From positions 1-58,969 of the forward strand of contig JAISTC010000029.1 of the NCBI GenBank assembly GCA_031272805.1: a DNA stretch of 58,969 nucleotides, given 5' to 3'. A program made the position numbers and the translations under genes. Positions 10 through 53,905 of the stretch are shown here, one piece after another; positions within the stretch are counted from its first letter, which is position 1, and each line of letters starts with the position of its first letter. Under the pieces are notes generated by a model. The model made no database searches. It saw only the letters and a list, made by a program, of their open reading frames with translations, and was not told where the DNA came from. The stretch comes from Propionibacteriaceae bacterium. GTDB lineage: Bacteria > Actinomycetota > Actinomycetes > Propionibacteriales > Propionibacteriaceae.

Positions 10-38
10 GAGATCCTTCGCTCCGCTCAGGATGACAG
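10..38. repeat. Solo unit of hairpin-repeat family 2 (GAGATCCTTCGCTCCGCTCAGGATGACAG)
   Basis: The same 29-nt unit recurs with 1 mismatch at 28066-28094 and in opposite orientation at 27879-27907. It contains an ATCCT/AGGAT stem. Confidence 0.7.
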
Positions 39-96: not shown

Positions 97-522
97 TCAC
101 ACGGACGGCACAAGGTCAAGATACGGCGCATGCCGCAGGCGCACCGCGGTGAAGTGGCGCCGGTCCAGCGTGGCGACCTGCCGCACGCCAAAACGCTCGG
201 CCAAGGCCATGACAGCAGCGTCGGTGGTGCCCAATGGGAAGTCGCCGTACTGCTCGACCAACTCCGCCATGCGCTCCAGGTCTTGGGGGATCAAGTCAAC
301 AGTGGCGAACCCGGGACGGGTCAACCGGCGCAGAAACTTGGCTTCAACCCCCGCGCCGCCCAGAGAACCGAGCAGGTAGCCGGTCTCGGCCAGAACAGGA
401 GCCGGCACGGCAATCACTTCACGACGCGCGTGGACTGACTGGAACAACGCCACGCAGGCGGCATGGTCGGGATCAGTTCGGATGGCAGCGGCCACGAGGG
501 GGCCCGTGTCACAGAGCAACAT
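97..522 (-). CDS. vapC: PIN-domain ribonuclease toxin (VapC-like), 141 aa
   Basis: Translation from ATG 522 reads MLLCDTGPLVAA...LAETGYLL...ATLDRRHF, a PIN-type pattern of acidic residues. The start shares one nt with the stop of the upstream small gene (TGATG). Confidence 0.8.
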   Translation of the reverse strand: MLLCDTGPLVAAAIRTDPDHAACVALFQSVHARREVIAVPAPVLAETGYLLGSLGGAGVEAKFLRRLTRPGFATVDLIPQDLERMAELVEQYGDFPLGTTDAAVMALAERFGVRQVATLDRRHFTAVRLRHAPYLDLVPSV

Positions 523-734
523 CAGACCCGGCCGAAACCCTGGGCCAACCACTCGTCCGCACGCTCGGCCACGGGGCCGTCGACGGATTCGATCGCGCCG
601 AACCAGTCGGGCGGCCAGTCGTCGTCCGCCACCAAGGCGGGGCTCAACACGCGTAACGCGGCGATCGCCGACGTCAACTCGGACTCAGGCACGGTCTCAG
701 CCAAGTCCATGAGTTCCTGGCGCTTCGGGGTCAC
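522..734 (-). CDS. Antitoxin-like small protein upstream of VapC (about 70 aa)
   Basis: GTG at 734 is preceded by AGGGAGG with 7-nt spacing. It is small and acidic, with a C-terminus ...ERADEWLAQGFGRV, and is translationally coupled to the PIN gene. An alternative ATG start lies at 710. Confidence 0.6.
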   Translation of the reverse strand: MTPKRQELMDLAETVPESELTSAIAALRVLSPALVADDDWPPDWFGAIESVDGPVAERADEWLAQGFGRV

Positions 735-917
735 ATCGCCACCTCCCTGACTCAGCAACAATCCGAGTCTAGCCACCCAGACCGCGACCACGGGCTCGGG
801 CGGGGGCACCTGATACCGCGGCCGACCCCACACAAACCCCACCACCCGACCCTCGCCCGACCAAACTGTCAGTCACCGCCCCCACAATGAGACCCATCAC
901 CGACCTGAGGAGTCATC

Positions 918-2144: not shown

Positions 2145-2654
2145 CTATGGCGCGGACTGCAGGACCCGTTTCAGGTCCTTCATGGGCAGGAGCAGGTGGA
2201 GCGGGTCAGCCGGGGACTCGAGAAAATCGGCGTTGGCCAGGTAGAAGGCCTTGGCCGCTTCGTCCCGGCAGTGGACGAGGACGGCGGCGGCGCCGATGGC
2301 GTCGGATTGGAACGCCGCCCGCCGCAGGGCGTCGGCCAGGAGACGGCGGCCCAGGCCCGAGCCCTGGCGGTCGCGCCGCACCGCCAATCGGGCCAGGAGG
2401 ACGCACGGGACCTGGTTGGGACGTCCTTTCTGGAGGCGCTCGGGCACGGTCAGGCGCCCGACGCTCGCCATCGTGATGGAGTAGTAGCCGAGCATCAGGC
2501 CGTCATCGTCCGCCACGACATAGGTCACGGCGTTGCCCGCCTGCTGGTTCTCCCAGGCGAACTGGGCGAACCAGAGGTCGAGGTCGTCGGCGCCGCTGCC
2601 GAAGTCCTCGCGCCGGTCCCCCCGTTCCAGCTTGCGCGGCGCCGGGAAGCCCAT
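2145..2654 (-). CDS. GNAT acetyltransferase toxin of a DUF1778-GNAT (TacT/AtaT/KacT-type) TA pair
   Basis: 169 aa. It has an RLAVRRDRQGSGLGRRLLADAL acetyl-CoA-binding motif and sits 3 nt downstream of a DUF1778 gene. Confidence 0.8.
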   Translation of the reverse strand: MGFPAPRKLERGDRREDFGSGADDLDLWFAQFAWENQQAGNAVTYVVADDDGLMLGYYSITMASVGRLTVPERLQKGRPNQVPCVLLARLAVRRDRQGSGLGRRLLADALRRAAFQSDAIGAAAVLVHCRDEAAKAFYLANADFLESPADPLHLLLPMKDLKRVLQSAP

Positions 2655-2657
2655 CGC

Positions 2658-2975
2658 TCAGGCCTCGCTGAACAGGCGAGCCAGCTTGGCCGTCGACGGC
2701 AGGGGCTGGTCCAGGAGATCGAGAAACGCCTCGTACTGCTCGTCGCTGACGGCGAACCAGCGCCGGTCGGCCAGGACCATCTGGGCCTGCGTCACGGCAC
2801 TGTCGAGGACGAAGTCGGTCAAGGTGTGGTCCGTCGCCTCGGCCGCCCACTTGAGCGTCTGCTCCTGCCGCGGCGTCGCCCGCAAGCTGATGCGCCGAGT
2901 CTTGACCCCCGCAGGTTCCACGGTCAGCGTCACGGGTTCCTCCGATCCCCAGTCTTGTGTGCCCAGTGTACACAC
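2658..2975 (-). CDS. DUF1778 (TacA-type) antitoxin
   Basis: ...RISLRATPRQEQTLKWAAEATDHTLTDFVLDSAVTQAQMVLADRRWFAVSDEQYEAFLDLLD is the characteristic DUF1778 pattern. The exact start is uncertain and may be an internal GTG. Confidence 0.8.
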   Translation of the reverse strand: MCTLGTQDWGSEEPVTLTVEPAGVKTRRISLRATPRQEQTLKWAAEATDHTLTDFVLDSAVTQAQMVLADRRWFAVSDEQYEAFLDLLDQPLPSTAKLARLFSEA

Positions 2976-3006: not shown

Positions 3007-4734
3007 TTACAGCGACGCGATGGCCGACGGGAGGAAGCGCGCCAGGTCTTGCGGGGGGTACGGGCCGGGGTGGCGGGCGGCGGTCAGCGCTTGGATCGAG
3101 CCGGCCAGCAGTGCTGCGTCACGCGGGGGCAGGCCGGCGGCCAGGAGCGTGGCCGCGATGCCGGCCAGGACGTCGCCGGAGCCGGCCTGGGCGGTCCACG
3201 CCGGGCCGGGGAAGCACAGGTACGTCACGGCGTCGCCCGGTGTGGCGACGTACTGCGTGGCGCCCTTGAGCAGGATCGTGGCACCGGTTCGGCGGCACGC
3301 CGCCTGCACTGCCGCGACCGGGTCGGCCGCCACGGCGTCACGCGGGACGCCGAGCAGGCGCGCCAGCTCACCAGAGTGCGGGGTCAGGAGGACGGGCGCG
3401 GGGGTGGCAGAGGTCACGCACTGGATGGCCTCGGCGTCGACCACTGTGGGGCGGCCCTGGGCCAGGATGGCGGCCACGTGGGTCGCCGCGTCGGGCCGGT
3501 CGCCCCAGCCGGAGCCGAGCAGCCAGGCGTCCGCCCGGGGCAGGGGCGAGTCCGCCGACGGGCAGACCACGTTGGGCAGCGCGGCCCGGACCTCGGCGCG
3601 GGCTGGGCCGACGTACTTGACGTAGCCGGCCCCGGAATAGACCGCGCCCAGTGCGCCCAGCACGGCCGCACCGGGGTACGCCGCCGAGCCCGTGTCGATG
3701 GCGACGACGCCGCGGGAGTACTTGTCGCTCGTGGACGTGGGCCGCGGCCAGCGGGAGGCCAGGTCGGAGAGCTCGAGTTCGCTGAGGTACGGAGGTGTGA
3801 CAGCCACGGCGGCCACGGTGTCGGGCCCGCTGGAGATCGTTCGCAGAGCTCGCTCCGTAGCCACCGTGCCCGACCCCCTGGCCTCAGCCCGCTCCGCAGC
3901 CACCGTGCCCGACCCCATGGCCTCAGCCCGCTCCGTAGCCACCGTGCCCGACTCCGTGGCTTCTGCCCGCCAGGCCAGCGGGTCAGGCGGGGCCAGGGGG
4001 TCGGGCGCCGTGGCTACGGAGCGAGCTCTGCGAGCGACAGCCACGGGGCCCGACACCGTGGCCTGGCGAGCGAACTTCGGGCGGCCCGACCCCGTGGCCT
4101 GGACCTCAGCAAACAGGCCGAGGTCGATCAGGCGTCTGGCGCCACAGCGGTCGCGGGCGGGTTGCAGCACGTGGCAGGGCTTCCAGGCGCCGAAGCTGAC
4201 CGTACGCGCGGCCGCGAACGCTGGCCCCGCCGGACGGCAGGCATCCGCCTCCAGGCCGCTGGGCAGGTCGGCCGCCACGACGGCCACCCCGCGCTCCGCG
4301 CAGGCCGCCGCGAACGCCGCCACGGCGTCGGGCAGCCCGGGCCGGGCCCCGATGCCGAAGACGGCGTCGATGACGACGTCCGCCGACTCCAGCGCCGCCA
4401 GCGCGCCCGCCGCGTCGACCGCCCGCCCGCCGGCGGCCAGCAGCGCCGCCCAACCTTGACCGTGACGTTTCTCGAAGGCCGCCCACACCGTCACCCTGGC
4501 CCCGCGCTGCGCCAATCGGGCCGCCGCGAACAGGCCGTCGCCGCCGTTGTCGCCCGGGCCCGCCACGAGCAGGACCCGCGCGCCCCGGACCCGGCGGCCC
4601 GCGTCGGCCAGTTCGGCCGCGACCTCGCGCGCCAGCCCGGCCGCCGCCCGCGCCATCAACCGGCCCGACGCCAGCGCCTCGCCCGTCGCCCGCTCGGCCG
4701 CGCGGACCTGGTCCGCCGTGTAGACCGCCTTCAC
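3007..4734 (-). CDS. nnr: Bifunctional NAD(P)H-hydrate epimerase / ADP-dependent dehydratase (Nnr), 575 aa, with a repeat-derived insertion in the interdomain linker
   Basis: The N-terminal YjeF_N part reads VLLVAGPGDNGGDG. The C-terminal kinase-like part reads DKYSRGVV...GSGDVLAG. The GTG start at 4734 overlaps the acpS stop (GTGA). The track ORF 3007..5064 was trimmed. Confidence 0.85.
   Translation of the reverse strand: MKAVYTADQVRAAERATGEALASGRLMARAAAGLAREVAAELADAGRRVRGARVLLVAGPGDNGGDGLFAAARLAQRGARVTVWAAFEKRHGQGWAALLAAGGRAVDAAGALAALESADVVIDAVFGIGARPGLPDAVAAFAAACAERGVAVVAADLPSGLEADACRPAGPAFAAARTVSFGAWKPCHVLQPARDRCGARRLIDLGLFAEVQATGSGRPKFARQATVSGPVAVARRARSVATAPDPLAPPDPLAWRAEATESGTVATERAEAMGSGTVAAERAEARGSGTVATERALRTISSGPDTVAAVAVTPPYLSELELSDLASRWPRPTSTSDKYSRGVVAIDTGSAAYPGAAVLGALGAVYSGAGYVKYVGPARAEVRAALPNVVCPSADSPLPRADAWLLGSGWGDRPDAATHVAAILAQGRPTVVDAEAIQCVTSATPAPVLLTPHSGELARLLGVPRDAVAADPVAAVQAACRRTGATILLKGATQYVATPGDAVTYLCFPGPAWTAQAGSGDVLAGIAATLLAAGLPPRDAALLAGSIQALTAARHPGPYPPQDLARFLPSAIASL
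3811..4099. repeat. Cluster of REP-like family-1 repeat units lying inside the nnr reading frame
   Basis: Several GGCCACGGTG..CGCTCCGTAGCCACCGTGCCCGACCCC units are present, plus one inverted GGGGTCGGGCGCCGTGGCTACGGAGCGAG...AGCCACGGGGCCCGACACCGTGGCC unit. The same family occurs at 7 intergenic loci. Confidence 0.85.
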
Positions 4735-20393: not shown

Positions 20394-20612
20394 GCCGTGG
20401 GGTCGGGCACGGGTCGCTAGCCGTGGGGTCGGGCAGGGTCGCTAGCCGTGGGGTCGGGCGCGGTGGCTACGGAGCGAGGCACGAGCGCCAGCCGAGGGGT
20501 CGGGCACGGAGGCAACGGAGCGAGGAACGAGCGACAGCCACCGGGCCCGACACCGCGGCGACACCGAGCCCACGACGACACCCAGCCCACCGCGACACCC
20601 AGCCCACCGCGT
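20394..20612. repeat. REP-like family-1 cluster (partial units, one complete hairpin unit, GACACCCAGCCCACCGC x2)
   Basis: CCGTGGGGTCGGGC occurs 3 times. The complete unit reads GGTGGCTACGGAGCGAGGCACGAGCG...ACGGAGCGAGGAACGAGCGACAGCCACCGGGCCCGACACCGCGG. It ends 7 nt before the transglutaminase gene stop. Confidence 0.85.
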
Positions 20613-24201: not shown

Positions 24202-25470
24202 CTATGGGCCCAGGCACGAGATGGGCACGGAGTAGACGCCGTCCGGGCGGCGGTAGGCATAGCCGTCGGCCGTGAGGACGAGGAGGAACGACGCCGGCCC
24301 GGCGTGCTGGGACCGGACCGCCCCCTGGAGGCGGAGGAGGTTGGCGGCCGCCTCGTCCTCGCGGGTCTTGTCCAGCTTGATCTCGACGGCCCCCCACCGG
24401 CCGTCAGCGTGTTCGATGATGGCGTCGCACTCCAGGCCCCGGGCGTCTCGGTAGTGCCAGACCGAGGCGTCAGCGGCCTCGGCGTAGGTCCTCAGGTCGC
24501 GCACGCAGAGCGACTCGAACAGCAGGCCGAACGTGTTGAAATCGGTCACGAGCTTGTCGGGCGTCAGGCGCAGGAGCGCCGCCGGGATGGACGGGTCGCA
24601 GAAGCGGCGGATGGGCGAGGTGCGCTGGACGACCTTGGACCGGACGGCGGGCGCCCAGGGCTCTTGGTCCTCCAACACGTACAGGCGGCGCAGCGCGGCG
24701 AGGTAGACGGCGATCGTATTGACCGACACCACGCCGTCGTCGGCCGCCATGTCGGCCCGCAGGGTCGTCATGGCGGCTTCCGTCGACTCGTTGCGGGCCA
24801 GCGAGCGCAGCAGGAGCCGGACCCGGCGGGGGTTCTTGTCGATCCCGTCGACCCGGGAGATGTCCGACTCGGCGATCGAGTCGGCGTAGTCGGCGGCCCG
24901 CTTGGCGGAGTACTCGTCGCTGGTCACGACGGAGGCCGGCCACCCGCCCCGGATCAGGCTGAGGGCGAGGTAGTCGAGCGGGAGAGTGGCCTGGCCCGTG
25001 ACATCGGCGCCGTCGAAGATATCCCGCAGCGACACGGACCGGTTGGACTCGCCGGACTCGGCCAGGCTCATGGGACGCATCACCACCCTGGACACACGGC
25101 CCGTGCCCGTGTGGCGGATCTCGTCTTGGGCAGGGATGGACGAACCGGTCAGGATGAACTGGCCGACGTCGTGGCCGCGGTCGACCGCGAAGCGCACGGC
25201 GTCCCACAGCACCGGCTGGTCCTGCCACTCGTCGATCAGGCGGGGCCGCTCGCCCTCGAGGAGCAGGGACGGCTGGACTCCAGCCAGGCGGGCGTAGTCG
25301 GCCCGCCGGTCAGGGTCCTGGAGATAGATCGCCGAGCGGGCCGCCCGCTCGGCGGTCGTCGTCTTGCCGCACCACTTCGGCCCGACGATCTGTGCCGCCC
25401 CGGCACTCTTCAGCGCGGCGGCGAGGAGACCGTCAGCGATCCGGGGATGGTAGTCCGCCACCGTGTCCAT
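24202..25470 (-). CDS. AAA-type ATPase with C-terminal DUF4143 domain
   Basis: Walker A GPKWCGKTT, Walker B LIDEWQ, and a DUF4143-like C-terminal half. 422 aa. GAGGAG lies 9 nt upstream of the ATG. Confidence 0.85.
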   Translation of the reverse strand: MDTVADYHPRIADGLLAAALKSAGAAQIVGPKWCGKTTTAERAARSAIYLQDPDRRADYARLAGVQPSLLLEGERPRLIDEWQDQPVLWDAVRFAVDRGHDVGQFILTGSSIPAQDEIRHTGTGRVSRVVMRPMSLAESGESNRSVSLRDIFDGADVTGQATLPLDYLALSLIRGGWPASVVTSDEYSAKRAADYADSIAESDISRVDGIDKNPRRVRLLLRSLARNESTEAAMTTLRADMAADDGVVSVNTIAVYLAALRRLYVLEDQEPWAPAVRSKVVQRTSPIRRFCDPSIPAALLRLTPDKLVTDFNTFGLLFESLCVRDLRTYAEAADASVWHYRDARGLECDAIIEHADGRWGAVEIKLDKTREDEAAANLLRLQGAVRSQHAGPASFLLVLTADGYAYRRPDGVYSVPISCLGP

Positions 25471-25585: not shown

Positions 25586-25695
25586 GTAGCCACGGGGTCG
25601 GGCACGTCGGCGACGGAGCGAGGAACGAATGATTCCAGCGGGCCTGACACCGTGGCCCTGCTGACGACACCCAGCCCGGCCGTGGGGTCGGGCCG
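25586..25695. repeat. Degenerate REP-like family-1 unit
   Basis: AGCCACGGGGTCGGGCAC...GACGGAGCGAGGAACGA...GGGCCTGACACCGTGGCC...CCGTGGGGTCGGGCC, located between the HNH-TIR gene stop and the ATPase gene start. Confidence 0.6.
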
Positions 25696-25737
25696 GTCGT
25701 GGGTGGTCCTGGTCCCATAGCCGCGCCACCCTCGGCG

Positions 25738-27315
25738 TCACGCCCCGGGGGATTCGAGATTCAGCCACAAAGCCGGGCGCACGCCGCCGACAGCAGCCGG
25801 GACAACGAGGCCATAGTCATACAGGCGGCCGTCGGTGTTGACAAGGGCCGCGTAGCCAGGAACGTAGCCAGGCGAACGCAACCACCACCAAGCGTTGTCC
25901 CCTCCAGAGTCGACAGCGATTAGACCAGGGGCCATGAACCATCTGCTTCGGTGGCGCAGGAAATCGAGTGAAGACTTTCCCGCCAGGTAGAGCGCGCTCT
26001 CTTCGATGCTCAGCAGGAAGACCCGGTCTCGAGCGGGCCGGCCACCTGGCGTCGTCCAAGCGAGGTTGTCCTTAGTTCTAATGGTCGCCTCCGCCACCTG
26101 GTTTGCGAACGGTTTGCCCAGCCAGTCTAGGAATTCACTGTTGAGCCAGGTCCTGAGGTCGCACTCGCACCATGTCACGGCCTGCTGCTTGCCGTGGTAC
26201 GGCCCTCGCCCCACAACCTGGTCGGTCAGGAGCAACGCCCTCCGCTCGCCCTGCTTGCCCTTAACTGCCAGGACTCTCCATCTGTACCCGCTCAGCGTCA
26301 CGGACAAGGCCGTGTCCCGCCACACGGACTCACTGGGCTCGGGAGCTTGCCGCAGAATCGTCGCGGCGGCCGCCGCCACCTCCACCTCCGACGACGCAGG
26401 CCGACGCTCGCACGTGACCAGTCCTGACACATCCACCGGCCGCTGCGCCTTGCCCGCGGGTCGCCTCCGGCGCGCCGGCTCCCGACCCGGCTGGCCTGCA
26501 CCCAGCAGGCCCTTGATCTTCGCTACCAGCTGGGCGGCTTCCTTGTCGTACCGGTCTCCGGACAGGTCACAGTAGTGAAGGTCAGCCAGCGTGAGGCCGC
26601 CGCCCAGGTCCCGCGCCGGGATCTCGCCTGCGTCCAACCGAACTGGAACCAGCCACACCTGACCTGGCGGCCTTTGCCGAAACTCCTCCACCGCCAGGGT
26701 CAGCTCCTCATTCATGAAGGACTTCTGCTTACGCCGATAGTTCTCCGAGAAACACGCCAGGAACACGAGCGACTCGTTACGGATGGCCGTCCTGATCTTG
26801 TCCTTCCACAAGTCCCCGGGCCCGAGCTCGTTCCGGTCACGCCAGTACGGAATCTTGGCAGTCTTCAGGACAGCGCAGAGCCTGTCGACCGCGTCGGAGT
26901 CTTCCCTCACATACGAAATGAACACGCGCTTGCCCGCGACAGAGGCTGCGGCAGAGGTTGTGGCGGGCCTGCGGGCCGGTGTCCCGTCCTGTCCGTGTTC
27001 GTGCTGCTGCTTCCATGAGCGCAGGGTCTCGGCGCTGTAATCGGCGCCGTTGTTGGCGTCCACCTGGCTGTGATGGGTCGGGCACAAGATGATCCGGTTC
27101 GCGTAGGTCTCCACGAGGTCGGCCGGGTAGGCCGGGTCCCAGCGCGGCCCGCCAGGAGTGGCCGAGTGAATATGCGCCTCTTCCCCCCGAACACCGGGAC
27201 GGCCCGACGAGTTACCAGCGGCTCCTTCGACCAGCTTCTGATGGCAGCCAGGGAACGCACATTCGTTGCGCGACAGCGCCCACAACAGCTTGCGATCCTT
27301 CGCGGAGAGGCTCAC
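25738..27315 (-). CDS. 525-aa three-domain protein: N-terminal HNH nuclease + TIR domain + C-terminal DUF6273-like domain
   Basis: HNH: CAFPGC..EEAHIH..NRIILCPTHHSQVD..WKQQHE (aa ~8-106). TIR: KRVFISYVREDS...LVFLACFSENY...SFMNEELTLA (aa ~129-232). DUF6273-like: YRWRVLAV..ALLLTD..TWCECDLRTWLN..RVFLLSIEE..WWWLRSPG..GVRPALWLNL (aa ~340-520). The GTG start at 27315 is preceded by GAGGAG with 6-nt spacing. Confidence 0.85.
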   Translation of the reverse strand: MSLSAKDRKLLWALSRNECAFPGCHQKLVEGAAGNSSGRPGVRGEEAHIHSATPGGPRWDPAYPADLVETYANRIILCPTHHSQVDANNGADYSAETLRSWKQQHEHGQDGTPARRPATTSAAASVAGKRVFISYVREDSDAVDRLCAVLKTAKIPYWRDRNELGPGDLWKDKIRTAIRNESLVFLACFSENYRRKQKSFMNEELTLAVEEFRQRPPGQVWLVPVRLDAGEIPARDLGGGLTLADLHYCDLSGDRYDKEAAQLVAKIKGLLGAGQPGREPARRRRPAGKAQRPVDVSGLVTCERRPASSEVEVAAAAATILRQAPEPSESVWRDTALSVTLSGYRWRVLAVKGKQGERRALLLTDQVVGRGPYHGKQQAVTWCECDLRTWLNSEFLDWLGKPFANQVAEATIRTKDNLAWTTPGGRPARDRVFLLSIEESALYLAGKSSLDFLRHRSRWFMAPGLIAVDSGGDNAWWWLRSPGYVPGYAALVNTDGRLYDYGLVVPAAVGGVRPALWLNLESPGA

Positions 27316-27389
27316 GGTTCACTCCTCGGCCCAACGTGGCAGACGGGCTGTACTGGCCTAGTCTGTCACGCCCCGATCGCCCACCTGGT

Positions 27390-27545
27390 TCAGGCGGCGC
27401 TCAAGGCTCGTTGCACGGTGGTCTGGCTGACGCCGAGGGCGGCGGCGATGTAGCGGATGCTCCGGCCTTCTGCTCTCATCTGGGCGGCCGCCTCGGTCTT
27501 CACCTTCGTCGTCACGGTCGGCCGCCCGCCGACCCGGCCCCCGGC
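27390..27545 (-). pseudogene. Remnant of a serine recombinase (resolvase/invertase) C-terminal HTH domain
   Basis: My own translation of the minus strand gives ...AGGRVGGRPTVTTKVKTEAAAQMRAEGRSIRYIAAALGVSQTTVQRALSAA*. This is the GRP...IA..LGVS..TV.R HTH_7 pattern. No catalytic domain or credible start codon lies upstream. It is absent from the track in this frame. Confidence 0.5.
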
Positions 27546-27873: not shown

Positions 27874-28102
27874 CCCCCCTGTCATCCTGAGCGCAGCGAA
27901 GGATCTCGCCCCGCTACCGAGCCGCCCCGCCACCCCCCTTGTCATTCCGGCGACAGCCGGAATCTTGAAGCACTGTTGTCGGCCATCCGGGAAAGATCCC
28001 GGCTTTCGCCGGGATGACAGAGAAGGGGGCCGGGATGACGACCCAGGGGGATCGTCGGCGGCGGAGAGATCCTTCGCTGCGCTCAGGATGACAGAGGAGG
28101 GG
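27874..28102. repeat. Nested inverted array of family-2 hairpin units (A, B, B-inverted, A-inverted)
   Basis: A is CTGTCATCCTGAGCGCAGCGAAGGATCTC (27879-27907). B contains ATTCCGGCGACAGCCGGAAT (27944-27963). B-inverted contains ATCCCGGCTTTCGCCGGGAT (27996-28015). A-inverted is GAGATCCTTCGCTGCGCTCAGGATGACAG (28066-28094). Confidence 0.85.
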
Positions 28103-33269: not shown

Positions 33270-33460
33270 GCGCCACGGTGTCAGGCCCGCTGGCTGTCGC
33301 TCGTGCCTCGCTCCGTAGCCAGCGCGCCCGACCCCATGGCTGTCCCTCGCGCCTCGCTCCGTAGCCAGCGCGCCCGACCCCATGGCTGTCCCTCGTACCT
33401 CGCTCCGTAGCCAGCGCGCCCGACCCCATGGCCCGACCCCATGGCCCGACCCCGTGGCTC
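33270..33460. repeat. REP-like family-1 cluster, three tandem units plus partial units
   Basis: GCCACGGTGTCAGGCCCGCTGGCTGTCGCTCGTGCCTCGCTCCGTAGCCAGCGCGCCCGACCCCATGGC is followed by two shortened copies and CCCGACCCCATGGCCCGACCCCGTGG. Confidence 0.85.
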
Positions 33461-50193: not shown

Positions 50194-50205
50194 ACCGGCC
50201 ACTGT

Positions 50206-50274
50206 GGCCACGGGGTCGGGCAGTGGCTACGGAGCGAGGCACGAGCGACAGCCACCGGGCCCGACCCCGTGGCC
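50206..50274. repeat. Best-preserved single REP-like family-1 unit (69-nt imperfect hairpin)
   Basis: GGCCACGGGGTCGGGCAGTGGCTACGGAGCGAGGCACGAGCGACAGCCACCGGGCCCGACCCCGTGGCC. The arms GGCCACGGGGTCGGGC / GCCCGACCCCGTGGCC and GTGGCT / AGCCAC pair. It starts 13 nt after the regulator stop. Confidence 0.9.
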
Positions 50275-50384
50275 CCGACCGCCATCCACTGCCCCACCAC
50301 CGCACCCGGCGCACCGCGTGACGGCAACTGTCGGTCGCCCACATTAGGGTGGGCCCGAGGCCCAGGACCTAAGGAGGAACCGCC

Positions 50385-52092: not shown

Positions 52093-52153
52093 GGGGGGAT
52101 TCTAGAGGGGGGCGTCTCCGGAGGTGGGCTGACCGGGGGATGAGTTTGGGGCG

Positions 52154-52245
52154 GGCCACGGTGTCAGGCCCCGTGGCTGTCGCTCGTTCCTCGCTCCGTA
52201 GCCACGGTGCCCGACCCCATGGCCCTGTGCCTGACCCCGTGGGGG
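52154..52245. repeat. REP-like family-1 unit (inverted orientation) plus partial unit
   Basis: GGCCACGGTGTCAGGCCCCGTGGCTGTCGCTCGTTCCTCGCTCCGTAGCCACGGTGCCCGACCCCATGGCC, directly abutting the DUF5709 gene stop. Confidence 0.9.
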
Positions 52246-52674
52246 CTAGTCGTCGTCGCGTTCGGTGGCGGAGTCGATGATGTGCATGGCGGCTTCCTCC
52301 GCGCTGGCGCCGCCACCGTCGATGCCGACTTCCTCGGCCAAGGTGTCGGGGGACGGGTCGTAGCCCGTGCCGCTGACGGCCACCAGGCGGCCCGCACGGC
52401 GGCCGCCGACCTGGGATTCCTGGCCCGGCTCGGGGCGCCAGCGCGGGCGCTCCTCCGTCGGCTCGGGGACTTCCGCCGCGACCTGGCGGTCGATCGACTC
52501 GCCCTGGCGCATCTCGGCCGCCGTGTTGCCGTAGGTCTGGAGCACCGACCAGTTGTCGGGCGCGATGAAGCCCTCGTCCAGCACGTCGCCGACGCCGCGG
52601 TCGATCAGCGTCGCGTCGGGCTGGAGCTGGTCCAGTTGTTCGGACGAATCCGGGACGAATGCTTCTTCGCTCAT
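52246..52674 (-). CDS. DUF5709-like acidic protein, 142 aa
   Basis: MSEEAFVPDSSEQLDQLQPDATLIDRGVGDVLDEGFIAPD... Acidic, with an actinobacterial DUF5709-type pattern. The track ORF 52246..53052 was trimmed. Confidence 0.65.
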   Translation of the reverse strand: MSEEAFVPDSSEQLDQLQPDATLIDRGVGDVLDEGFIAPDNWSVLQTYGNTAAEMRQGESIDRQVAAEVPEPTEERPRWRPEPGQESQVGGRRAGRLVAVSGTGYDPSPDTLAEEVGIDGGGASAEEAAMHIIDSATERDDD

Positions 52675-52993
52675 GCTCCGATCCTGCCACAACGGGGCCC
52701 TTGTCTCCAGAGCCACACACGAGGGATTACCACCACCCATGGACCGGGAGAGGACCATGACCAGGCTGACCCTCAGCCCGCGCCCGGCCCACCCAACCGG
52801 CGCTTGCCCCCGCCCAACGGCACCTCCCAACCGACCCAACCACGGTTGGCGACCGCCCCGCAGGCTGAGGCGCGCAGGGATGGCGCACTCGCCGCCCGCA
52901 GCGCCGCCGCCGCCCAACTCGGCCACAGCGTGACGGTTCGGCGGCCGAGGACGGCGAGTGCGTCGTGCCTGTGCGCCGACCCACAGACCAACC

Positions 52994-53060
52994 CGGCGAG
53001 CGTAGCGAGCGAACTCGCCAAGGCGGGGGAGCCTGACACCTCGGCCTGACACCTCGGCCT
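52994..53060. repeat. Degenerate REP-like fragment with a 13-nt tandem duplication (GCCTGACACCTCG x2)
   Basis: GGCGAGCGTAGCGAGCGAAC resembles the ACGGAGCGAGGAACGAGCGAC loop. GCCTGACACC resembles the REP arm. Confidence 0.35.
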
Positions 53061-53759: not shown

Positions 53760-53905
53760 AGGCCACGGTGTCAGGCCCCCTGGCTGTCGCTCGTTCCTCG
53801 CTCCGTAGCCAGGGTGCCCGACCCCCTGGCCTTCTCGTTCCTCGCTCCGTAGCCAGGGTGCCCGACCCCCTGGCCTTGCGACCCCCTGGCCTCCCGACCC
53901 CTGGG
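53760..53905. repeat. REP-like family-1 cluster filling the gap between convergent yhhQ and the TPM gene
   Basis: GGCCACGGTGTCAGGCCCCCTGGCTGTCGCTCGTTCCTCGCTCCGTAGCCAGGGTGCCCGACCCCCTGGCC, plus a shortened copy and CCCCTGGCC tails. Confidence 0.9.

Follow-up and report, generated by a model that had tools for sequence, protein, structure and literature searches.

An HNH-TIR-DUF6273 fusion protein of a Propionibacteriaceae bacterium is a mosaic of defence-type modules and a candidate one-polypeptide sensor-effector

Can a nuclease, an NAD-cleaving domain and a sensor be combined in a single polypeptide to form a bacterial immune system encoded by one gene? This question is raised by a 525-residue protein encoded on a contig of a Propionibacteriaceae bacterium (JAISTC010000029.1 of assembly GCA_031272805.1, 58,969 nt, analysed at its full length and referred to here as the window). 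An original prediction made from the DNA letters and their translations had described the protein as a fusion of HNH nuclease, TIR and DUF6273-like domains and as a candidate undescribed immune or abortive-infection system. All three modules proved to be real, and both the HNH and the TIR domain have retained their catalytic residues. We consider it somewhat better than an even chance that the gene, built by domain shuffling and acquired horizontally, encodes a cytoplasmic sensor-effector of the abortive-infection type. The open reading frame (ORF) corresponds exactly to the one described, with its GTG start codon, the quoted motifs lie at the positions given for them, and the strong Shine-Dalgarno sequence GAGGAG is found 6 nt upstream of the start codon (Table 1). 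Furthermore, relatives of the HNH module align with the N-terminus of the protein from residue 1, and this colinearity supports the GTG start. The protein is cytoplasmic, given the absence of a signal peptide or transmembrane segment from its sequence (polar N-terminus; maximum 19-residue hydropathy, KD19, of 1.27), and its Pfam matches include no recognisable secretion or trafficking domain. No NTPase domain was detected with the PADLOC and Pfam profiles. Neither PADLOC nor NCBIfam holds a model that spans the whole protein, and NCBIfam has no model for it at all; together with the lack of a second triple fusion in the databases searched, this bears out the statement that no named defence system has such a three-domain combination.

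The N-terminal module appears to belong to the clade of HNH nucleases found in Cap5 and SPARHA. Residues 3-108 match the HNH parts of the PADLOC models PDC-M68A (1e-24), the endonuclease effectors of the cyclic oligonucleotide-based antiphage signalling system (CBASS; 7e-21) and SAVED_HNH (2e-19), as well as the N-terminus of SduA (7e-13). Among solved HNH nucleases the closest is the SPARHA effector 9om4 (E=6e-14), and Cap5 is matched as well (7rwk, E=1.4e-6; 8fm1). Alignment with these structures and with the genomic relatives places the AHI, N..LLC and HH motifs and the Cys ligands in register, and C19, C24, H48, N73, C78 and H81/H82 are all retained. H48, N73 and H81-82 occupy the positions of the beta-beta-alpha-metal motif (general-base His, Asn and metal-binding His), and the Cys/His residues those of the zinc ligands. 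Of the HNH domain originally placed at about residues 8-106, the Cys/His signature is thus backed by profile and structure matches, and what it lacks is a match to Pfam. An HNH-only query of a word-indexed cluster database returned a single relative (P0240, 45% identity), and the same domain, with the pattern SGNECAFPGC…H…N…HH, is N-terminal in relatives from 20 genomes. These relatives include P-loop/STAND-like proteins of about 900 residues, some with TPR arrays, proteins of about 425 residues that match the PNTD models associated with prokaryotic Argonautes (pAgo), SAVED proteins and others. Further relatives are carried by plasmids of Mycobacterium, Rhodococcus and Arthrobacter and by the Z-region of a P2-like prophage.

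For the central module, the proposed TIR_2-type domain is confirmed by a Pfam match far above the curated cut-off (TIR_2, PF13676; residues 131-263, E=2.8e-22, 79.9 bits against 28). Both Glu203 and Glu204 had been named as candidates for the catalytic residue. E204 is the catalytic equivalent and is invariant across 35 aligned TIR domains, those of distant TIR-DUF6273 proteins included, and E203 is only its neighbour. The family profile puts Y-m-n-e-E-L onto W-C-W-D-E-L of the CRISPR-associated NADase Cat1, and we take the E204 position to be that of the W/F-x-x-x-E catalytic glutamate of SARM1 and AbTir. In the full-length AlphaFold model the predicted local distance difference test (pLDDT) is mostly above 90 across the TIR domain and helix 200-213 is present. 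Foldseek neighbours of the TIR model comprise SPARTA TIR-APAZ, SARM1, AbTir, RPS4, BtpA, Cat1 and TIR-STING; among these, SPARTA, SARM1, AbTir, TIR-STING and Cat1 are NADases of immune systems. Taken together, these data point to an enzymatic-type TIR domain, a putative NADase whose catalytic residue is intact.

The C-terminal module matches DUF6273 (PF19789; residues 360-519, E=1.4e-21, 77.5 bits against a cut-off of 23.5), and all columns that are invariant or near-invariant among 122 homologues are present. The Pfam match and the scaffold motifs agree with a DUF6273 domain at residues ~340-520, but the module that was transferred begins further upstream, at about residue 282. An AlphaFold2 model of residues 286-525 was obtained with a pLDDT of 92.8 and a predicted template modelling score (pTM) of 0.91. 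Its sole Foldseek match in the PDB is the DUF6273 N-terminal domain of a Thomasclavelia IgA peptidase (9qa6, E=9e-6; PMC12402451), and canonical C-type lectin structures were not returned by that search; against BFVD, the matches are phage DUF6273, receptor-binding and tail proteins. The domain had been called one of unknown function, which the literature corrects: DUF6273 is described there as a lectin-like variable receptor-binding domain, targeted in phages by diversity-generating retroelements (DGRs), with the variable region at its C-terminal end (PMC10743442; bioRxiv 10.1101/2024.10.15.618418; PMC11792537). It is from this literature that the C-type-lectin-like binding fold is taken, our own Foldseek search giving no claim of fold. 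Between the invariant WWWLRSPG and GGVRPALWLNL motifs of the protein lies a patch with many Tyr, Asp, Asn and Gly residues (484-509), in which the invariant A491, G496 and G502 alternate with positions of near-maximal entropy among the 122 homologues (H of at least 3.4 bits). This pattern is the hallmark of a binding surface that diversifies, and we predict the patch to be the ligand-binding surface of the module and the equivalent of the DGR variable region.

In order to understand how the three modules came together, we compared each of them with its nearest relatives, which are mainly actinobacterial and fall for every module in defence-type families, in line with the proposed defence affinity. 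Residues ~126-272 share 60-68% identity (about 65%) and the FISYVxED…FLACFS…MNEEL motifs with the N-terminus of a widespread actinobacterial TIR family of about 502 residues (P0012, P0013; hosts include Streptomyces, Kribbella, Nocardioides and Dietzia), which we regard as the donor lineage of the TIR module. The remaining ~350 residues of that family match the PADLOC candidate PDC-S65 (residues 163-495 of P0012). The homology stops at residue ~272 and the protein gives no match to PDC-S65; with this C-terminal domain missing, membership in PDC-S65 was rejected. Where the family has its PDC-S65-type domain the protein has the DUF6273 module, and the HNH domain has been added in front. The switch takes place within about 10 residues (aa ~273-281), after which the C-terminal block (aa ~282-525) shares 63% identity with the C-terminus of a 769-residue KAP-family NTPase (P0002) whose NTPase matches PDC-S20, QatA and PifA. 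The block's remaining close relatives are KAP-NTPase fusions (P0293, P0301, P0341) or proteins with PknG-type TPR or FHA domains. The protein is thus best described as a mosaic to which three defence-type lineages of actinobacteria contributed, namely the ~502-residue TIR family, the KAP-NTPase-DUF6273 proteins and the Cap5/SPARHA-type HNH nucleases, and it illustrates how a defence protein may be born by module swapping between lineages.

No full-length relative was found by a word-indexed search of a protein collection of 5.8 billion clusters or in any of 185,579 species-representative genomes, and neither a full-length nor a two-module relative appeared in plasmid and phage searches. When 1.84 billion representatives were searched exhaustively with HMMER, none of the best 150 proteins listed, apart from the protein itself, matched two or more kinds of module. 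One TIR relative with a 225-residue N-terminal extension (P0302) was considered as a two-module relative and dismissed, the extension having no HNH motifs. Since, in addition, the 90% cluster of the protein consists of the same contig deposited twice and nothing else, the triple fusion is a singleton, and conservation of the catalytic residues in homologues can consequently be assessed module by module only. What is new here is the dual-effector triple fusion itself, with two enzymatic effectors per chain, a sensor of the DUF6273 subtype, neither NTPase nor adaptor, and no DGR in the window.

The gene is also foreign to its surroundings. It lies in the lower-GC patch that had been noted in the original prediction: the GC content is 0.656-0.676 at 25-28 kb and about 0.70 in the flanks, and the GC content at third codon positions (GC3) of the gene is 0.785 against 0.93-0.96 for the flanking genes and 0.93-0.99 for the native genes on both sides. 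As GC3 is similarly low in each module (0.75-0.81), the gene is compositionally uniform, and its low GC3 relative to the native neighbours shows that it was acquired horizontally.

To place this architecture among known ones, we turned to the partners of DUF6273 in its 122 closest relatives. A TIR_2 domain is found in three of these (P0222, P0225 and P0205), a CAP12/PCTIR-type TIR in one (P0214), a ThsB-type TIR (ThsB_TIR) in two, and a match to the spbK model in one (8.6e-41). P0205 also matches SEFIR, with the bSEFIR model covering its N-terminal part (9e-68). In all of these fusions DUF6273 is C-terminal to the TIR-superfamily head. The pairing of TIR and DUF6273 is therefore recurrent, and DUF6273 has been fused independently to several TIR subtypes. 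Like the protein studied here, the TIR-DUF6273 proteins (P0222, P0225, the SEFIR-type P0205, the PCTIR-type P0214 and the SpbK/ThsB-like member) join the TIR head directly to DUF6273 with no NTPase, and they are encoded by stand-alone genes with no reverse transcriptase nearby. They differ in coming mostly from Firmicutes-type metagenomes, in their DUF6273 identity of 35-41%, in their TIR subtypes and in having no HNH domain.

The underlying design has precedents in the literature. Lectin-fold (FGS) domains in conflict systems were found to keep a "strict syntax" with a C-terminal position (Kaur et al. 2020, PMC7159879), and proteins that join a STAND or KAP NTPase to CLec, in some cases with a TIR or peptidase effector at the N-terminus, were described as putative antigen sensors (Doré et al. 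2024, PMC10907252), although STAND-associated CLec domains had no experimental characterisation at that time (PMC10907252). One or more effectors, an optional NTPase and a C-terminal lectin-fold sensor thus form an already proposed class of conflict systems (PMC7159879; PMC10907252). The sensor-effector logic put forward for the protein is accordingly a sound reading, but it is no new principle, and the TIR-DUF6273 pairing within it recurs. The systems of these two studies share with the protein their N-terminal TIR, peptidase or nuclease effectors and a hypervariable lectin fold at the extreme C-terminus, and the KAP NTPase, mentioned among their partner types, is the lineage from which the C-terminal module derives. 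On the other hand, they are centred on an NTPase (STAND, KAP or MoxR-vWA), are mostly served by DGRs and use the FGE-sulfatase fold subtype, whereas the protein has no NTPase, vWA domain or adaptor, has no DGR within 59 kb, and combines the DUF6273 subtype with two enzymatic effectors per chain.

Two observations on other DUF6273 proteins were made alongside this comparison. A set of DUF6273 proteins of 340-400 residues from outside the window (P0140, P0150, P0156, P0166, P0172, P0173, P0175, P0183, P0194, P0207, P0220, P0228, P0232, P0233) combines an N-terminal zinc ribbon (CxxC…CPFC) with a conserved helical segment after it, NSKDALAFIAKEHGADVLLG.KLK.FF, and shows no evident signal peptide. 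Pfam assigns DUF6273 alone to these proteins, plus zinc-ribbon matches in two members, and they look like another recurrent cytoplasmic DUF6273 architecture. Near the relatives discussed above, a pair of nucleotidyltransferase genes (NTP_transf_2/Polbeta, 265-1223 of locus L026) precedes the KAP-DUF6273 gene P0002, and a gene with a SocA_Panacea domain (1887-2318 of locus L027) follows the SEFIR-DUF6273 gene P0205. Such neighbours resemble toxin-antitoxin genes and are typical of mobile or defence regions, an anecdotal observation given the short contigs.

How might the protein work? Two characterised effectors that resemble its modules are switched on by oligomerisation. SpbK of the Bacillus subtilis element ICEBs1 has a TIR domain that is clustered and activated by binding the oligomeric (dodecameric) phage portal YonE (PMC12847820). 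It provides the mechanistic model for what we propose here, being a one-gene TIR abortive-infection protein with a clustering-dependent NADase and an oligomeric phage protein as trigger (PMC12847820), yet it has neither HNH nor DUF6273, and the TIR domain of our protein comes from another TIR_2 lineage. On the nuclease side, Cap5 (CBASS HNH-SAVED) and the SPARHA HNH-APAZ protein share its HNH subtype, with the Cys/His zinc site and AHI…N..LLC..HH, and are immune nucleases that need oligomerisation to become active, whereupon they degrade DNA without specificity; for the SPARHA HNH, activity arises in filaments and results in indiscriminate collateral DNA degradation (PMC12738770). Their sensors are different, SAVED for a cyclic nucleotide in Cap5 and pAgo/APAZ for a guide-target duplex in SPARHA, and the protein has neither. 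As oligomerisation activates both types of effector, ligand-induced clustering would be the most economical model. Therefore, we hypothesise that the DUF6273 module binds an invader-derived ligand, for which an oligomeric structural protein of a phage or a glycan is most plausible, via the hypervariable surface of residues 484-509, and that the multivalency of this ligand causes the protein to cluster. Clustered TIR domains could then form a composite NADase site around Glu204, leading to NAD+ depletion or to ADP-ribose-type products, and clustered HNH domains (H48, N73, H81-82 and the Cys/His zinc site) could assemble into active oligomers that degrade DNA indiscriminately. The infected cell would be killed or arrested. 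Ligand binding by DUF6273, activation by clustering, the two enzymatic activities and an anti-phage role are all things that we infer from these parallels.

Assignment of the protein to an established defence system was tried and rejected in each case. For CBASS of the Cap5 type, the SAVED_HNH and SAVED_TIR models match the HNH or TIR parts only, and no cyclase/CD-NTase gene is adjacent, the flanks encoding an ATPase, a helix-turn-helix (HTH) protein and metabolic functions. For short pAgo systems (SPARHA/SPARTA), Aga_TIR-PNTD models match residues 130-233, that is the TIR domain only, and there is no Argonaute-like neighbour. Avs and other STAND-based defence would call for a central STAND NTPase; the protein has none, although its HNH relatives have one and the donor of its C-terminal module has a KAP NTPase. 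Thoeris gives no PADLOC match in the protein, and no ThsA-like gene is found among its neighbours (a DUF4143 ATPase, the HTH protein and metabolic genes). The DGR-variable proteins of phages, tentaclins and Mtd-like receptor-binding proteins, belong to the same DUF6273 family and carry their variable patch likewise between WWWLRSPG-like and GVRPA-like motifs (PMC10743442). They are extracellular virion proteins with an adjacent reverse transcriptase and template repeat, in contrast to the cytoplasmic, effector-fused protein, which has no DGR in the window.

Several observations weigh against the interpretation as an immune sensor-effector. As a singleton, the fusion provides no set of orthologues in which purifying selection or an enrichment of defence genes in the neighbourhoods could show. 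No Pfam HNH family matches the protein at E<=1, and in the AlphaFold2 model the HNH module is poor (pLDDT 30-50, with residues 18-93 below 50; the alignment was two sequences deep). With one usable homologue besides the protein itself, the model of this module is unreliable, which leaves sequence evidence as the basis for membership in the HNH clade. The majority of DUF6273 proteins are either extracellular or carried by phages (the IgA peptidase's N-terminal domain, giant repeat proteins, receptor-binding proteins), so that an intracellular ligand is an assumption. Finally, with the exception of one PDC-S01-like ATPase, the immediate neighbours of the gene are housekeeping genes. The main rival explanation builds on such points and sees an evolutionary accident, a recent in-frame chimera produced by recombination or deletion among defence genes on a mobile element, which would be non-functional or neutral and decaying in a degraded insertion. 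It is what one might expect from a fusion with no orthologue and no protein of two or more modules among the top hits of the searches above, from a cluster made up of one contig deposited twice, from sharp module junctions and from a neighbouring recombinase reduced to an HTH stub. Against decay, however, stands a frame of 525 codons that is intact over two junctions, preceded by a strong Shine-Dalgarno sequence and colinear with its relatives at the N-terminus, in which all catalytic and structural HNH and TIR residues and all invariant DUF6273 scaffold residues are kept. Moreover, the uniform GC3 over the modules argues for a fusion that is older than the transfer or that was given enough time for its composition to equilibrate, and the arrangement obeys the known syntax, with N-terminal effectors and a C-terminal lectin fold (PMC7159879). 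We therefore regard an accident as improbable, at perhaps the level of a serious minority view.

HNH and TIR domains are both known as modules of polymorphic toxins, and the two could be the payloads of an inter-bacterial or addiction-type toxin, with DUF6273 providing targeting or adhesion to a glycan or protein on the surface of a competitor. The predominance of DUF6273 in secreted, surface or phage receptor-binding proteins would fit this (PMC12402451, PMC10743442), as would the toxin-antitoxin genes elsewhere in the window. Nevertheless, we consider a toxin unlikely, because nothing in the protein marks it for export, as noted above, because polymorphic toxins carry the toxin C-terminally and are followed by an immunity gene, whereas here the effectors are N-terminal and the downstream gene encodes an ATPase of native composition, and because the partners of DUF6273 in its closest relatives are cytoplasmic modules (KAP NTPase, FHA, PknG-TPR and TIR). 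Less likely still is that the gene is the target of a DGR located elsewhere in the genome, its C-terminal patch being actively hypermutated and the protein serving as an antigen receptor that diversifies. DGRs have DUF6273 among their recurrent targets, and the variable region lies at exactly such a position (PMC10743442, PMC11792537, bioRxiv 10.1101/2024.10.15.618418), the patch is hypervariable across the family with the residue bias described above, and DGR-diversified KAP/STAND-CLec proteins are known whose template repeats may lie elsewhere in the genome (PMC10907252, PMC7159879). Within the 59-kb window, however, a DGR was rejected: sensitive blastn with the gene returned chance-level matches only and thus no second copy of its 3' end that could serve as template repeat, and no YxDD motif of a DGR reverse transcriptase occurs in open frames of at least 200 residues. 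Likewise, the available sequence of one KAP-DUF6273 locus and three TIR/SEFIR-DUF6273 loci contains neither a template repeat nor a called reverse-transcriptase gene.

Returning to the sensor-effector that we favour, a broader interpretation may tentatively be attached to it, one for which we would claim clearly less confidence. The protein and the wider TIR-DUF6273 group could represent a minimal, NTPase-free "lectin-receptor" arm of immunity, in which a lectin fold senses a phage component inside the cell, clusters and fires the fused suicide effectors, two orthogonal ones acting together in the present protein. If this were true, simultaneous NAD+ depletion and DNA degradation would make escape by a single anti-defence protein harder for a phage, and the dual-effector design, if real, would bear on how hosts counter such proteins. 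A small one-gene lectin-fold protein wired to two easily assayed effectors would also be a convenient test system for the idea of a bacterial "antigen sensor", as no NTPase, adaptor or retroelement is needed, and the simpler TIR-DUF6273 proteins (325-420 residues) are equally suited to testing lectin-fold sensing. A single occurrence on one contig limits the general importance of the fusion unless defence turns out to be the role of the entire TIR-DUF6273 group, and the general value lies less in the singleton than in that group.

Table 1 Features of the HNH-TIR-DUF6273 gene and its neighbours (positions in the window)
Feature	Position	Strand	Basis and remarks
Whole gene, HNH-TIR-DUF6273 protein	25738..27315	minus	ORF list; 525 aa, GTG start, stop codon 25738-25740
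Shine-Dalgarno GAGGAG, 6 nt 5' of GTG	27322..27327	minus	Sequence inspection
HNH nuclease module, aa 1-110	26986..27315	minus	PADLOC models, PDB matches, 20 aligned relatives from genomes
Linker 1, aa 111-127, Ala/Pro/Thr-rich, disordered	26935..26985	minus	pLDDT <50 at residues 106-126
TIR domain, aa 128-272, catalytic-equivalent Glu204 in F-M-N-E-E-L	26500..26934	minus	Pfam TIR_2
Junction/linker 2, aa 273-281	26473..26499	minus	Family switch from TIR to KAP-DUF6273 against P0012/P0013 and P0002/P0003; pLDDT <50 at 275-289
C-terminal sensor module, aa 282-525: strand-plus-helix extension aa ~300-340, then DUF6273 lectin-like fold aa ~341-521	25741..26472	minus	Pfam, homology, AlphaFold2
Hypervariable patch, aa 484-509, between WWWLRSPG and GGVRPALWLNL	25789..25866	minus	Column entropies, 122 homologues
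Serine-recombinase-type C-terminal HTH remnant, directly 5' of the gene, ending …GRPTVTTKVKTEAAAQMRAEGRSIRYIAAALGVSQTTVQRALSAA before the stop codon	27390..27530	minus	Six-frame translation; HTH_7, HTH_38
Divergent HTH protein, 91 aa	27587..27862	plus	Pfam HTH_24, HTH_23; GC3 0.86 (intermediate)
Downstream AAA_14 + DUF4143 ATPase, PADLOC single-gene candidate PDC-S01	24202..25470	minus	Pfam; PDC-S01 E=1.3e-58; GC3 0.936

The neighbourhood of the gene is summarised in Table 1. The recombinase remnant that had been reported next to the gene is indeed of the resolvase type, but it amounts to a C-terminal HTH of about 46 residues with no catalytic domain, scoring just below the cut-off for HTH_7 (profile positions 1-44 of 45, 22.9 bits against 23.8) and above it for HTH_38 (29.5 bits). 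The divergent 91-residue HTH gene beyond it may belong to the same acquired patch or may encode a regulator. Downstream, an operon link with the DUF4143 ATPase was rejected: in the 267-bp spacer between the two genes lie one copy of a hairpin repeat that is dispersed over the window and a promoter-like site (25573-25546) belonging to the ATPase, whose GC3 is native, and the ATPase is probably independent of the HNH-TIR-DUF6273 gene. Farther out, housekeeping genes were recognised by eye from their translations on both sides (PhoH, an ATP-grasp/alpha-E/transglutaminase cluster, acyl-CoA dehydrogenase, thiolase and CoA-transferase). Neither Rfam matches nor tRNA genes were found in the window. 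Of the two arms of a 17-nt inverted repeat (25724-25740 and 27428-27444, 16 of 17 positions complementary), one falls on the stop codon of the gene and its partner within the HTH remnant of the recombinase. The repeat was considered as the boundary of an invertible or mobile segment and attributed to chance, since 33% of shuffles of the region contain an equally good pair.

The repeat in the spacer belongs to a family of intergenic elements of about 75 nt (consensus GGCCAnGGGGTCGGGCACGGTGGCTACGGAGCGAGGAACGAGCGACAGCCAGCGGGCCTGACACCGTGGCC), of which the 59 kb hold at least 10 copies with ~76-86% identity. Copies lie at 25588-25658 (+), 3811-3882 (partials at 3890-4063), 20440-20588, 33272-33341 (partials up to 33432), 50201-50275, 52153-52223 and 53761-53874. 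The element forms a long hairpin of 23 pairs, three of which show compensatory changes, and has no Rfam match; it resembles repetitive extragenic palindromes (REP) or miniature inverted-repeat transposable elements (MITEs) and is unusually dense. The peptides of the type GVGHxGxGARNE…GPDT in spurious intergenic ORFs arise because they are translations of this repeat. A second family, TGTCATCCTGAGCGCAGCGAAGGATCT, is present at 11-37 (-), 27880-27906 (+) and 28067-28093 (-), three copies with none expected. Two of them form a MITE-like inverted repeat of 35 nt with 94% complementarity (27876-27910 and 28063-28097) around a 152-nt segment with more hairpins, with the HTH gene on one side and the acyl-CoA dehydrogenase gene on the other. 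The third lies right where the contig begins, suggesting that this repeat causes assemblies to break.

Two toxin-antitoxin-like pairs lie at the left end of the window (97-552 (-) with 522-845 (-), and 2145-2654 (-) with 2658-2975 (-)). One consists of a PIN gene of the VapC type with a small upstream ORF; in the other, a TacA antitoxin gene precedes one for a GNAT acetyltransferase of the TacT type. Their GC3 of 0.76-0.91 is below the native value of about 0.95. Finally, a 268-residue ORF at 52246-53052 (-) carries a C-terminal DUF5709 domain, has a GC3 of 0.82, below that of its neighbours, and sits beside copies of the ~75-nt hairpin repeat.

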